Source of the DNA: a virus
Virus record (IMG/VR): IMGVR_UViG_3300045988_019087
Coordinates: 1-5,933 of that record
Length of the DNA stretch: 5,933 nt
Reading direction: 5' to 3' (one strand)
Below, one piece after another: positions 2,581 to 5,843 of the stretch. Every line of letters begins with the position of its first letter. Position 1 is the first letter of the stretch. The position numbers and the translations under genes were made by a program. The notes beneath the pieces are model-generated. The model saw only the letters and a program-made list of their open reading frames with translations, ran no database searches and was not told where the DNA came from.

Positions 2581-3027
2581 TTACGTTTTACTCCCTTCCT
2601 CTGGTTCTTCTTTCTGTGCTTTGCTCTGTTCTTCCAGCTCTTTGAGCTTCATTGTGTTTGCCTGGGCGGTCGCAATCATCTGGTGATACTCGTGGATGTT
2701 TTGCGGCCATTCGGTTATATCCATTTCTATTCCATCCATAACGCCTTTTTCAAGGCTTTTCAGAAATTCCGGGTCGAAACTTGCCTTTCTGACAATGTTT
2801 TTGATGTCACATTCATCCGAATAGCTTTCAATTTCCTGTTGGATGTCGATTGGTTCGGTTTCCTGTAACACTTCCTGCCCTTTTTCGTCCTTTGTCCAGA
2901 CGTATTGTTTTCGTAGTTTTTCGCCCGGATTCGAAAAGAAGGGCTTTCGCCCTTCCTCGTATCGTTTATTCATGCGGTTTGCCCTCCCATACTTTTTCCT
3001 TGCCGTTAGAAAATTCGCCGGACTCAT
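2581..3027 (-). CDS. Putative internal scaffolding protein (VP3-like); probably starts at the internal ATG 2971-2973
   Basis: 148-aa ORF ending 2 nt before the VP1 ATG, with an acidic C-terminus (ELEEQSKAQKEEPEEGSKT). ATG 3025-3027 has no SD. Internal ATG 2971-2973 (MNKRYEEGRKPFF..., 130 aa) is preceded by GGGAGGG at ideal spacing, and would cut the overlap with the upstream 79-aa ORF to 8 nt. Size and position next to VP1 suggest a VP3 analogue, but there is no sequence signature I can verify. Confidence 0.4.
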   Translation of the reverse strand: MSPANFLTARKKYGRANRMNKRYEEGRKPFFSNPGEKLRKQYVWTKDEKGQEVLQETEPIDIQQEIESYSDECDIKNIVRKASFDPEFLKSLEKGVMDGIEMDITEWPQNIHEYHQMIATAQANTMKLKELEEQSKAQKEEPEEGSKT

Positions 3028-3205
3028 CGTTGAATGCTGCTAACTGGTAGCCGATATAGTCCTGCGGGCTCTGCCCTAAGAAGGTCTTTTCGTCTTTTGC
3101 CATCGTGTTGCACATACGCGCAAACGTTCCGTTGTTTTTGCTTTCGCCCACCCATGCGTAGCATTTTGCTACGTTGTCCCAAATGCCATAATACAGATGT
3201 TCCAT
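2966..3205 (-). CDS. Hypothetical protein (79 aa, acidic)
   Basis: ORF MEHLYYGIWDNVAKCYAWVGESKNNG... with strong SD AGAGAGGAGAAAAAA immediately upstream of ATG 3203-3205. No recognisable family. Confidence 0.45.
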   Translation of the reverse strand: MEHLYYGIWDNVAKCYAWVGESKNNGTFARMCNTMAKDEKTFLGQSPQDYIGYQLAAFNDESGEFSNGKEKVWEGKPHE

Positions 3206-3682: not shown

Positions 3683-4084
3683 TTACACCCCCTTTCTGTA
3701 TTTGTTGGGTCGTGTATCAACGTGCACCCAACTTGTGTAGACGATGATACCGCATTCGTTTGGAATGATTCTATTCAGTCTGTTAGCAATTTCTTTTGCG
3801 GTCATTCCTTCAATCCGAATGTCTGCTGCCATACCGCGCATATGGTAGCTGTATTTTGCTCCATCGCATTTTTTGTTCCATTCTGGTGTTCTGTATCCGC
3901 TGGTTATGTATACCGGCTTTCCGACTTGGTTTCTGAGGATGTCCAGAATAGCTACAAGGTGCGTATCTATGAAAACTACTTGCGAATCGTCTCTACATGC
4001 GAATTCTTTTACTTTGAAGTGTTTTCCAACGTTCATGTTTTTGTCTGTGTCCATGATGTAGCATTGGATGGCCATGGTGTTCAC
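3683..4084 (-). CDS. Peptidase M15 family (zinc D-Ala-D-Ala carboxypeptidase / L-Ala-D-Glu peptidase-like) cell-wall hydrolase; probable lysis enzyme
   Basis: 133-aa ORF. Carries the M15 zinc-ligand signatures SGYRTPEWN, SYHMRGMAAD (SxHxxGxAxD) and WVHVD. The ORF track starts it at GTG 4084, but the in-frame ATG at 4073-4075 (MAIQ...) has better SD spacing (GAGAGGTGaacaccATG) and is the more likely start. Stop TAA at 3683-3685. Confidence 0.8.
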   Translation of the reverse strand: MNTMAIQCYIMDTDKNMNVGKHFKVKEFACRDDSQVVFIDTHLVAILDILRNQVGKPVYITSGYRTPEWNKKCDGAKYSYHMRGMAADIRIEGMTAKEIANRLNRIIPNECGIIVYTSWVHVDTRPNKYRKGV

Positions 4085-4260: not shown

Positions 4261-4289
4261 ATTTTAGCAGGTTTTTTACTGTTTGTCAA
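4261..4289 (-). promoter_or_regulatory. Sigma70-type promoter driving the minus-strand gene block
   Basis: On the minus strand: TTGACA (plus 4284-4289), exactly 17 nt of spacer, TAAAAT (plus 4261-4266). An A-tract upstream (plus 4291-4298 T-run) is UP-element-like. Predicted TSS is about 4254, giving a ~170-nt leader before the peptidase gene. Confidence 0.5.
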
Positions 4290-4381
4290 TGTTTTTTTGG
4301 TTTGAATGGCGCTTTAGCGCCTTGCCGTGCGTAGCGTATGCGGAGCTCGGCCTAATCCATTCATTTTTAGCGCTGTGCGCG

Positions 4382-4556
4382 TTTTCAACACTTTCAACAC
4401 TTTCAACAGGTTTTCAACAAAATATTGCACAATGATTTCCGTCATTTTGACGAACTTTCAACATTTCAACAAATTTTCCACAAGACTTTCAACAGTGTTT
4501 TTCGCTTGTTTTTAACGTTTTATTGTTATAAATTTATATTTTTCAACTTTTCCACA
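4382..4556 (+). repeat. Iteron array: about 10 same-orientation copies of 9-mer YTTTCMACA, including two DnaA-box consensus matches
   Basis: TTTTCAACA 4382-4390; CTTTCAACA 4391-4399 and 4400-4408; TTTTCAACA 4411-4419; CTTTCAACA 4455-4463; TTTCAACA 4464-4471; TTTTCCACA 4474-4482; CTTTCAACA 4486-4494; TTTTCAACT 4540-4548; TTTTCCACA 4548-4556. The two TTTTCCACA copies fit the DnaA box TTWTNCACA exactly; the others differ at one position. Followed by an AT-rich tract at about 4500-4545. Confidence 0.7.
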
Positions 4557-4593
4557 GTCTCTACTACTACGTCTACAACAAGTTAATATAATA

Positions 4594-4637
4594 TACGCGC
4601 GCATGCGTGCGCGCTACGCGCGCGCGTGCGTGCGCAC
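4594..4637. repeat. Alternating purine-pyrimidine (CG/CA/TG) Z-DNA-prone tract: two tandem ~21-nt repeats
   Basis: TACGCGCGCATGCGTGCGCGC (4594-4614) then TACGCGCGCGCGTGCGTGCGCAC (4615-4637). Each unit is fully alternating Pu/Py. Almost pure GC in a genome whose plus strand is otherwise T-rich. Highly self-complementary, so it has cruciform potential. Confidence 0.7.
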
Positions 4638-4640
4638 CGG

Positions 4641-4664
4641 CAGCCCCCTTGCTAGGGGGCGCTG
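4641..4664. repeat. GC-rich hairpin 1 (GCCCCC-ttgcta-GGGGGC, flanking CAG/CTG with a bulge)
   Basis: Perfect 6-bp stem 4643-4648/4655-4660, extendable by 2 bp across a 2-nt bulge. Confidence 0.55.
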
Positions 4665-4670
4665 ACGGAA

Positions 4671-4696
4671 GGGGGTAGGCCGATAGGCCTACCCCC
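4671..4696. repeat. GC-rich hairpin 2: perfect 11-bp stem GGGGGTAGGCC-gata-GGCCTACCCCC
   Basis: Stem 4671-4681/4686-4696 with all 11 pairs Watson-Crick, GATA tetraloop. Followed on the plus strand by TATTTTG. Confidence 0.65.
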
Positions 4697-4703
4697 TATT
4701 TTG

Positions 4704-4722
4704 CTGATAACTGATAACTGAT
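4704..4722 (+). repeat. Tandem heptamer CTGATAA x2.7
   Basis: CTGATAA CTGATAA CTGAT lies between hairpins 2 and 3. The GATA motif also forms the loop of hairpin 2. Confidence 0.45.
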
Positions 4723-4745
4723 TTACATGGAGTCTGAAGTCTATC

Positions 4746-4772
4746 ATCATCCCCCCTTCTAGGGGGGATGAT
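4746..4772. repeat. GC-rich hairpin 3: perfect 11-bp stem ATCATCCCCCC-ttcta-GGGGGGATGAT
   Basis: Stem 4746-4756/4762-4772, loop 4757-4761. The flanks CTATCAT / ATAGAG extend it imperfectly. Confidence 0.65.
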
Positions 4773-4780
4773 AGAGGGGT

Positions 4781-4813
4781 TAGCCAAGTTCTTACTTGAT
4801 AGGTACTTGGCTA
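4781..4813. repeat. Hairpin 4: 9-bp stem TAGCCAAGT ... ACTTGGCTA with a 15-nt loop
   Basis: Stem 4781-4789/4805-4813. Lies 11 nt from the VP4 stop codon. Confidence 0.5.
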
Positions 4814-4823
4814 GGTGACACCG

Positions 4824-5843
4824 TTAGAGTGTCCCTCTCTTCTTCATTTGCTTTTTGATGACTCTTTCTTTTGTTTCACATTGCTCTGCAAAGTCTGCGT
4901 TTTCATACTTTAGCCGATTTTCTGCTATGGCTGCCGCCTGTCTGTTTTGCTTAATTCTCCACAACCTTTGTGGGTTTTCAGCTTCCATCATTTTTTCATA
5001 ATAACGTGGAATTTGTGCGTGTTTTCCGTTTGTGCATTGGATGTATCCTTGTCTCCATATTTCTGTTTTGTGTTCTTGGTAATAGTGGTCTCCAAGTCCC
5101 GGTTTTAGGCTCATACATGCAAAAGGCTTTGTTTGCCCTAATTCATAGTATACGTTTGCTTTCTGGCCGTCAATTTCGTACATCTTTTTTGTGACGTACC
5201 CTGCAACATATCTATATGTCTCTGGTACTGCTTGTGCTATCTGTATTTGACCCATGCCCCAGATGTCTGTTAGCCATTTACTTGTGAAATATCCGTTGTG
5301 TTGTATCTTGTATAGGTGCTCTAGGTCTGTTGGCTTCCATCCGTATAGTATCATATGATAATGTGGTCTAGCTGTTTGCTCTCCGTATTCTCCTGCTACA
5401 AAATAGCGTAATTTGCCCCTGTAAGCCTTTCTAAGACGTTTTAGGAATTTTTGAACGTCAGTATACAGTAATGTTTGTACGCTTTTAGGCGCTTTCTCTC
5501 CTGGCTTCCAGACGTATTGTACTTTTCTCATGATTTCGCCTGTGTTTATAATCATCCCAGGCACGTGTTCATCATCATACGTTAGAGTGATAAACCACAC
5601 TTCTTCTTTCGGATAGTCTCGTGCTTCTAATTCTATACGTGTTGTCCAGTCCTCTCTCTGTCTTATTCTGCATCCGATGCATTGCCCGCATGGTATTAGC
5701 ATTACATCTTTTCTATACATCAAATCTTCATATTTTAGCTGTTTTCCGCAGACTTGAGAAAAGCGGGCAAGTGAATACACCCGCCCGCTTATTTCTTTGT
5801 TGTCAGGGTTGTACAGCCTTATCAATGGCTTGTAACATCCCAT
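4824..5843 (-). CDS. VP4: Replication initiation protein VP4 (rolling-circle Rep, HUH endonuclease)
   Basis: 339-aa ORF. HUH motif inside ARPHYHMILYG. Catalytic tyrosine motif YVAGYVTKK (YxxxY..K) as in phiX174 gpA and gokushovirus VP4. Cys-rich N-terminal region (CGQCIGC). ATG at 5841-5843 (equivalent to window positions 7-9) preceded by GGAGGAGG, which is itself formed by VP2 Gly codons. TAA stop at 4824-4826. Confidence 0.9.
   Translation of the reverse strand: MGCYKPLIRLYNPDNKEISGRVYSLARFSQVCGKQLKYEDLMYRKDVMLIPCGQCIGCRIRQREDWTTRIELEARDYPKEEVWFITLTYDDEHVPGMIINTGEIMRKVQYVWKPGEKAPKSVQTLLYTDVQKFLKRLRKAYRGKLRYFVAGEYGEQTARPHYHMILYGWKPTDLEHLYKIQHNGYFTSKWLTDIWGMGQIQIAQAVPETYRYVAGYVTKKMYEIDGQKANVYYELGQTKPFACMSLKPGLGDHYYQEHKTEIWRQGYIQCTNGKHAQIPRYYEKMMEAENPQRLWRIKQNRQAAAIAENRLKYENADFAEQCETKERVIKKQMKKRGTL

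Follow-up and report, generated by a model that had tools for sequence, protein, structure and literature searches.

A strand-specific CG/TG hairpin conserved upstream of the predicted origin in a clade of gut gokushoviruses

Origin-region hairpins are well documented in single-stranded DNA (ssDNA) replicons. The oric hairpins of phage G4 are complementary-strand origin structures. The single-strand origins of rolling-circle plasmids (ssoA, ssoT, ssoU and ssoW) and hairpins A-E of the Ff phages are strand-specific and orientation-dependent, lie just upstream of the nick and can be dispensed with at a cost. Outside phiX174 and G4, the complementary-strand start and origin location are, to our knowledge, essentially uncharacterised, and this includes the gokushoviruses. 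In phiX174, the n'/PriA primosome assembles at a hairpin (Shlomai and Kornberg, 1980, as cited in PMC9865509). In the reekeekee- and roodoodoo-microviruses, intergenic hairpins located between Rep and the capsid or other genes show compensatory substitutions, and a role in negative-strand synthesis is suspected for them but unproven (PMC9865509). The A site of the ABC primosome is a DnaA box in an ssDNA hairpin; once bound to this hairpin, DnaA loads DnaB onto the SSB-coated ssDNA so that the complementary strand can be made (Masai et al., 1990; Masai and Arai, 1995; both as cited in PMC6127211). Here we describe a hairpin formed by an alternating CG/TG tract at positions 4594-4637 of IMG/VR virus record IMGVR_UViG_3300045988_019087. 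The whole stretch analysed (5933 nt, hereafter the window) is a circular gokushovirus genome of 5834 nt with a 99-nt terminal redundancy. The + strand is the one given in the record, and the coding sense of every recognisable gene in the window is the minus strand.

On the + strand, the 5' arm CGCGCGCATGCGTGCGCG (4596-4613) pairs with the 3' arm CGCGCGCGCGTGCGTGCG (4617-4634) around the loop CTA (4614-4616), which is also the point where the purine-pyrimidine phase of the tract breaks. The 18 window pairs comprise 14 G-C, 1 A-T and 3 G.T. Folded with ViennaRNA using DNA parameters, every sequence variant from related genomes (52-58 folded) gives one unbroken stem of 18-23 bp on the + strand with its loop at the break, whereas the minus-strand folds are weaker and broken by internal loops. 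The tract is the most stable 50-nt fold of the genome, at -23.7 kcal/mol on the + strand versus -18.0 kcal/mol on the minus strand, and the next-best site reaches -16.6 kcal/mol. The centroid fold computed for the intergenic region contains the hairpin on the + strand and lacks it on the minus strand.

Since any alternating sequence can pair with itself, the pairing register was tested. In the true register, 81% of pairs are Watson-Crick, 16.4% are G.T and 1.4% are A.C, and A stands opposite T in 92 of 109 cases. With the partner arm shifted by 2 or 4 nt, the alternation is kept, but Watson-Crick pairs fall to 58-68%, A.C mismatches rise to 7-9% and A-T pairs nearly vanish. Relative to these slid registers, A.C is purged about 5-fold on the + strand and G.T only about 1.4-fold. 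Four pairs are altered on both sides (18 cells in 24 variants), and none of 500 shuffles reaches the observed values for these compensatory changes; slid registers show no double changes. Standard pairs make up 99.2% of those counted on the + strand in the 24 variants. The G.U-type wobbles among them (80 of 480 cells) become A.C mismatches on the minus strand, leaving about 83% pairable there. Selection therefore acts on the single-stranded form of the T-rich + strand.

These numbers separate the structural possibilities named in a preliminary description of the window. A symmetric cruciform calls for a hairpin on both strands and does not fit the 99% versus 83% split between them. Conservation of Z-DNA would be explained by alternation alone, yet the slid registers, which alternate equally well, lose A-T pairs and gain A.C. 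The conserved property is a hairpin in a single-stranded molecule of + polarity, neither Z-DNA alternation nor a symmetric cruciform. As a stable, evolutionarily maintained and strand-specific hairpin in a non-coding region, the element has one of the properties used to recognise single-strand initiation (ssi) sites, or complementary-strand origins.

The same description had quoted the tract correctly and was right about its alternation, its strong self-complementarity as ssDNA and the T-richness of the + strand (37.3% T). It saw a single 44-nt alternating run made of two tandem 21-nt repeats. There are instead two runs, one of 24 nt (4591-4614) and one of 23 nt (4615-4637), between which the phase shifts at C4614/T4615. 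A direct repeat exists, 81% identical at an offset of 23, with units of 21 and 23 nt. Its proposed origin by tandem duplication does not stand: the halves act as hairpin arms around a conserved central loop and are thus an inverted repeat. The tract was also said to be improbable in shuffled sequence, and across 2000 genome-wide mononucleotide shuffles the longest alternating run had a mean of 12.4 nt and a maximum of 24 nt. Two adjoining runs of 23-24 nt are far beyond chance.

A search for the tract in relatives had been recommended. We compared 4 GenBank genomes, 80 IMG/VR genomes and outgroups sampled from pig, rhesus, monkey and human; identity to the closest GenBank records, gut gokushoviruses of pig, human and monkey, is 77-83%. 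Of 90 related gokushovirus genomes from pig, human and monkey gut, 81 carry an equivalent tract of the same design at the corresponding position, and these tracts fall into 58 distinct sequences. Because these are independent assemblies, the assembly artefact that had been raised as a concern is ruled out. The tract had been called unusual for Microviridae, which holds outside the clade, where only 5 of 80 diverse gokushoviruses have a comparable one, but not inside it, where the tract is fixed. Every variant consists of an alternating block of about 21 nt, a T-rich break of 1-4 nt and a second alternating block of about 21 nt. The break, CTA in the window, is CTT, TTT, CTAT, CTAC or TTTA in relatives and always sits at the centre of the fold. 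Within the arms, variation is solely by transitions, which preserve the alternation.

This last pattern would also suit Z-DNA in the double-stranded replicative form (RF). Under negative supercoiling both blocks would flip, absorb about 4-8 turns and modulate nearby origin opening or transcription. The alternation is near-perfect, with CG and TG/CA steps, both runs exceed the about 12-14 bp expected of a CG-rich Z-forming run, and in most genomes the tract abuts the AT-rich/trio element described below. A two-state B-Z estimate (dinucleotide energies of Ho et al., 5 kcal/mol per junction, K = 1100RT/N) puts the critical superhelical density (sigma) at about -0.04, whether either block flips alone or both flip with a Z-Z junction, with 4.0-7.9 turns relaxed in the 5834-bp circle. 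The Z-DNA potential proposed earlier is thus physically plausible: the transition could be reached in purified RF and would be borderline in vivo. The value of -0.04 is above what is typical of unconstrained supercoiling in vivo, which we counted against a Z-DNA role. More importantly, Z-DNA requires no fixed register, no A opposite T, no central loop and no strand asymmetry, and all four are observed. The conserved phase break costs a Z-Z junction, the tract keeps its polarity where the neighbouring unwinding module is inverted away, and transition-only variation is equally expected of a hairpin that evolves through G.T intermediates. We consider conservation for Z-DNA unlikely.

The hairpin lies 5' of a second conserved structure on the same strand, the presumptive (+) origin hairpin TAGCCAAGTTC-TTACTTGATA-GGTACTTGGCTA (4781-4822, +), recognised by homology to other gokushoviruses. 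The preliminary description placed the tract next to replication elements, and it was right to do so. The phiX174 nick site is CAACTTG^ATA and that of the pC194 family CTTG^ATA; the gokushovirus loop resembles both. By analogy with phiX174, Rep is predicted to nick after TACTTG (G4798/A4799). Chp2, phiMH2K and SpV4 each have one strong intergenic hairpin on the coding strand with TACTTG(A/T)T in its loop. Among 80 diverse gokushoviruses, 39-44 carry a stem, a (C/T)TACTTGAT loop and a (T)AGGTGACACC 3' flank on the coding strand. The window has all three components, and judging by this sequence match the element is very probably the gokushovirus (+) origin.

Orientation sets the clade apart. In the window clade, wherever the full element was detected it runs antisense to all genes (85/85; 85/87 in a second count, none on the coding strand). 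Among the 80 diverse genomes, the only antisense cases are those labelled L103 and L106, plus L163 with CACTTG. The origin hairpin and the optimised, T-containing CG hairpin are on the same strand, and the CG hairpin heads a row of hairpins 5' of the predicted nick site and is much the strongest of them. The T-rich + strand is somewhat more likely than not the one that Rep nicks and displaces and that is packaged. A second candidate nick motif, AACTTGTTGTAG on the coding strand, has a 10-mer in common with the phiMH2K loop. It was judged to be at chance level (about 0.7 expected per genome, an estimate that allows one mismatch and two variants) and it also has no stem and no AGGTGACACC flank.

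On the other side of the tract is a module that resembles a chromosomal origin. DnaA-box-like direct repeats (TTTTCAACA, TTTTCCACA; repeat families D1-D3 and D7) run in one orientation on the + strand through 4382-4556, where five matches to TTWTNCACA with at most one mismatch are found versus 0.31 expected. The last box, TTTTCCACA (4548-4556, +), has 1 mismatch and ends 4 nt before the trio motif; a perfect TTATCCACA box is present in relatives. The DnaA-trio-like triplet repeat CTACTACTAC-GTC-TACAACAAG (CTACTACTACGTCTACAACAAG, 4561-4582) reads 3'-GAT-5' on the minus strand. It is near-invariant as CTACTACTAC-NNC-TACAACAAG, with 82 of 85 genomes within 4 mismatches. Between it and the CG hairpin is a 13-nt AT-rich spacer, TTAATATAATATA (4583-4595), which varies in relatives and is a candidate DNA-unwinding element. 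The box-to-trio orientation matches that of Bacillus subtilis incC. Basal unwinding requires a DnaA box with at most 2 mismatches, a spacer of 0-16 bp, at least three NAN trios (consensus 3'-GAT-5') and an AT-rich unwinding element (PMC8287927). As predicted from sequence only, 4539-4595 supplies these in order: TTTTCCACA, GTCT, CTA CTA CTA CGT CTA CAA CAA and then TTAATATAATATA. The trio-like motif closely resembles the DnaA-trio of Clostridioides difficile oriC2, 5'-CACCTACTACTATTACTACTATGA-3', which has three DnaA boxes before it and an unwinding element after it (PMC7561715).

The box/trio module was found in 47 GenBank gokushovirus records, and a plasmid collection gave no match to it. 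A host and prophage search of 185k genomes with the conserved trio motif returned only a binned free phage contig and a chance within-gene match, hence no host oriC match and no integrated form. We also considered and rejected a dif/XerCD-like reading of the AT-rich junction, because this stretch differs too much from one relative to the next and the search turned up no prophages. The box cluster has at its centre a palindrome, CGTCATTTTGACG (4440-4452), kept in relatives as CGTCA-NNN-TGACG; it is a candidate site for a dimeric protein.

CG/TG hairpins recur in other lineages. The separate antisense-origin lineage has a hairpin of about 80 nt (L103:60-150, L106:3040-3150, L163:4100-4210) with an alternating CG/TG hairpin at its apex. 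Its lower stem pairs GGTTATCCACAAGTCCACA with TGTGGGCCCTGTGGGTAACC, which makes two DnaA boxes (TTATCCACA) double-stranded. Folding energies on the origin-bearing versus the other strand are -32.4 versus -29.1, -30.7 versus -25.4 and -27.3 versus -19.2 kcal/mol, with z-scores of -6.2 to -7.4. Compared with the ABC-primosome A site, this is A-site architecture. L106 also has four tandem perfect TTATCCACA boxes upstream of the origin hairpin. In L143, whose coding strand is T-rich, a small CG/TG hairpin lies on the coding strand. All three lineages thus have a T-containing, wobble-tolerant hairpin on the T-rich strand, and in the two of them with an identified origin hairpin, the window clade and L103/L106/L163, this is also the origin-bearing strand.

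Given the observed hairpin, its strand specificity, its conservation and its position, we tentatively propose that, on + strand ssDNA, it is part of the complementary-strand origin used for ssDNA-to-RF conversion, a reading we hold plausible but short of probable. The + strand would then be the displaced, virion strand and the hairpin would serve priming. Rep would nick, displace and package the T-rich + strand, and the CG hairpin, being upstream of the nick site, would be the last part displaced, as in Ff phage and rolling-circle plasmids. After infection, the ssDNA would be coated by SSB except at stable hairpins, of which the CG/TG hairpin is the strongest. Its SSB-resistant duplex would offer a double-strand/single-strand junction to host priming or helicase-loading factors, and the complementary strand would start at this junction. 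In the double-stranded RF the same sequence could flip to Z-DNA as an incidental or secondary property. A broader scheme is possible, though we are more doubtful of it: the window clade and L103/L106/L163 would independently have placed a rolling-circle origin on the non-coding strand, packaged antisense ssDNA and recruited host DnaA, through an oriC-like RF module in the clade and an A-site-type hairpin in L103/L106/L163, with the CG/TG hairpin as the component of the ssDNA stage.

Several points weigh against the proposed priming role. Neither loop nor stem has a conserved sequence that a known primosome factor could read, and the DnaA boxes of the window clade lie outside any hairpin and are unpaired in the + strand fold. 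A priming role does not explain why the stem is built of alternating CG, which may have come from repeat expansion, from fast multi-register zippering or from a dual hairpin/Z-DNA role. The tract is wholly or half missing in five assembled relatives (L015, L033, L036, L038 and L081), and is therefore dispensable or redundant. The element may not be strictly essential, or those genomes may be defective. By analogy with the sso of rolling-circle plasmids, such natural loss suggests an element that is useful but redundant more than a core origin component.

Polarity is the other weak point, since we infer both the packaged strand and the priming start by analogy. Composition is indecisive for the virion strand because phiMH2K has an A-rich coding strand and yet carries its origin hairpin there. 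The coding-strand AT skew is 0.38-0.42 in L103/L106/L163 (the most A-rich of the sample), 0.35 in the window and 0.29 in phiMH2K. At fourfold-degenerate sites of the coding strand, the window has 52% A and 12% T, phiMH2K 45% A, Chp2 49% T and SpV4 65% T. The rare-variant mutation spectrum has no clear strand bias, with C>T similar to G>A. Origin-stem mismatches are G.T 9 versus A.C 2 in the clade and 5 versus 4 in classical genomes, too few events to decide.

Finally, RNA of + sense would give the same G.U-tolerant pattern as + strand ssDNA. An RNA hairpin could act either in minus sense, as a terminator or 3' stabiliser of the Rep mRNA, or in + sense, as an antisense or primer RNA. Between the Rep stop codon and the late promoter (4289-4261), the tract is suitably placed for the first of these, and there is a weak terminator-like call on the minus strand (stem 4614-4597, tail GTATATTATA). 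In minus-sense RNA, however, the 16% wobble positions are A.C mismatches, and the relatives we group as type C have no U-run after the tract. The + sense version has no conserved + strand promoter upstream, where the sequence is wholly different between genomes with normal and inverted modules. An Rfam search gave chance-level miRNA-like matches only. We find an RNA role, in either sense, distinctly improbable.

The inverted modules bear on a further explanation, in which the tract is a recombination substrate or boundary. Along with the CG-rich stretch 4367-4382, it would provide inverted repeats for module inversion, or it would act as a GC clamp on DnaA-driven melting. The box/trio module (about 210 bp) is inverted in 7 of 87 genomes (L006, L013, L034, L036, L055, L056 and L094). 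The inversion endpoints fall within the CG-rich flanks, AGCGCTGTGCGCGTTT on the left and the CG tract on the right, which are mutual quasi-inverted repeats; the reverse complement of 4367-4382 is AAACGCGCACAGCGCT, similar to the tract start ATACGCGCGCATGCGT. Inversion is rare, however, and short homology suffices for it. It leaves unexplained why a 20-bp stem would keep its register, show compensatory changes and differ between the strands, and the clamp fails where the tract is not beside the AT-rich end. We therefore think a recombination or clamp role very improbable. In the inverted genomes that retain the tract, it stays beside the Rep-proximal hairpins with the same polarity relative to the origin hairpin. 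Since its position does not change when the module inverts, the tract goes functionally with the array of hairpins on the Rep side rather than with the unwinding module, and a functional tie to the AT-rich stretch is not supported.

The tract-less relatives differ in what replaced the tract. L038 has neither the trio nor the tract, and L015 has lost a stretch reaching from the box/trio module into the tract. L036 has no tract, and its inverted module abuts the origin hairpin. A small unrelated hairpin replaces the tract in L081, and in L033 its 3' arm is truncated.

The tract holds 4 of the 4 GCGCGC, 4 of the 4 CGCGCG, 7 of the 11 CGCG and 8 of the 25 GCGC sites of the genome. That it is a restriction or methylation decoy, as had been suggested, or a neutral product of CG-repeat slippage or duplication, is scarcely credible: these sites and GCATGC are indeed concentrated in it, CGCG is about 2.4-fold under-represented elsewhere (4 observed versus 9.8 expected) and the direct repeat is 81% identical, but GCGC is not avoided elsewhere (17 versus 13.8), individual sites vary among the 58 variants while the hairpin is conserved, and a neutral repeat would not stay constant in length, central loop and pairing in viruses from pig, human and monkey.

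The remaining features of the intergenic region are as follows. The hairpin row continues on the + strand with three smaller hairpins, all in the centroid fold. The second, CAGCCCCC-TTGCTA-GGGGGCGCTG (4641-4664), is replaced or absent in some relatives. The third, AGGGGGTAGGCC-GATA-GGCCTACCCCCT followed by ATTTTG (4670-4697; inverted repeat I4, 12 bp, 100% complementary), is terminator-like on the + strand. The fourth is ATCATCCCCCCT-TCT-AGGGGGGATGAT (4740-4775; inverted repeats I5 and I6). Iteron-like repeats, CTGATAACTGATAACTGAT at 4703-4721 (TTGATAGACTGAATAGACTGATAC in relatives), occupy part of the stretch from the tract to the origin hairpin and may be Rep-binding sites. Some relatives (L037, L074, L078) have a second copy of this repeat family, CTACTTGATAGAC, directly after the tract.

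Type-C relatives (such as L016, L017 and L024) have an extra hairpin that separates the AT stretch from the tract. Its 17-nt loop, TGTGAGCTTGCGAACAA, is conserved, and its stem covaries (GGCGCT/AGCGCC, GGCACT/AGTGCC, CAACGCT/AGCGTTG). L062 and L083 have a related loop containing TAGCGA. A conserved, structured GC-rich element lies at about 4303-4363, with TGAATGG...CCATTCA around GGCGCTTTAGCGCC and GCCG..TAGCGT..CGGC. Its TAGCGT (about 4333) resembles the CS-6 motif of ssoA-type single-strand origins.

The tract lies in the sole long intergenic region of the genome, 4085-4823, between the Rep stop codon and the peptidase gene. Rep (VP4; 4824-5843; Pfam PF23343, E = 5.9e-17) ends with its stop codon against the origin hairpin. 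On the other side, a strong sigma-70-type promoter (4261-4289, minus; TTGACA-17-TGnTAAAAT with extended -10, 11/12 matches) reads into the M15 peptidase (3683-4084) and the structural genes. The genes other than Rep and the peptidase are VP5 (2966-3205), the VP3 scaffold (2581-3027), the VP1 major capsid protein (887-2578; Pfam Phage_F, E = 2e-134) and VP2 (9-848). All genes are on the minus strand and are preceded by strong Shine-Dalgarno sequences. The next-strongest local fold outside the intergenic region is a stable hairpin in the 5' portion of the Rep gene, AAGCGGGC...GCCCGCTT (5749-5790), which folds on the minus strand at about -14.8 kcal/mol. GATC is absent from the window, where 16-19 sites are expected, and averages 5.2 per genome in the clade versus 19 expected. 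This scarcity suggests pressure from a GATC-specific restriction system of the host.

The CG tract, conserved in a large clade of microviruses from human and animal guts, is a sharply defined and easily mutated candidate element. Its strand specificity and the orientation of the origin hairpin predict that virion DNA is antisense to the genes, which, if true, would overturn the view of Microviridae as uniformly positive-sense. The adjoining box/trio module suggests that a rolling-circle ssDNA phage borrows chromosomal initiation machinery. Such borrowing of DnaA would bear on host range, carrier-state persistence in the gut and host prediction.

Our literature search on DnaA boxes, Z-DNA or origin hairpins in Microviridae and gokushoviruses found nothing relevant to these elements. 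Peck and Wang in 1983 and Ho and colleagues in 1986 reportedly described (CG)n and (CA/TG)n tracts that form Z-DNA in supercoiled plasmids and in phiX174 RF. The gokushovirus tract shares the alternating composition of these tracts and a predicted transition near sigma -0.04, but its conserved register, loop and strand asymmetry are all irrelevant to Z-DNA. The closest microvirus parallels, in reekeekee- and roodoodoo-microviruses, likewise have intergenic hairpins with compensatory substitutions. They belong to another clade with other sequences, and neither alternating CG nor a DnaA-box context is reported for them.

The phiX174 n'/PriA and G4 oric hairpins are also stable intergenic hairpins in circular ssDNA phages. 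The known ones stay duplex under SSB and mark the host complementary-strand start. There is no sequence similarity: the stem described here is alternating CG/TG, it has no conserved loop and priming is only proposed. The host of the window phage is probably not an enterobacterium. With the ABC-primosome A site, as outlined in the source cited above, the clade shares the joining of DnaA-type boxes and a CG hairpin in one intergenic region. Its boxes are direct repeats outside hairpins, unlike the defining box within a hairpin, which the L103/L106/L163 stem does reproduce by forming double-stranded TTATCCACA boxes under a CG/TG cap. Compared with sso elements, the CG hairpin stem has no promoter-like -35/-10, and TAGCGT is not in the hairpin. 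It resembles the sso and the Ff hairpin array in its position upstream of the nick site and its strand specificity, and the natural deletion variants match their dispensability. The CG hairpin belongs to the known class of origin-region hairpins of ssDNA replicons.

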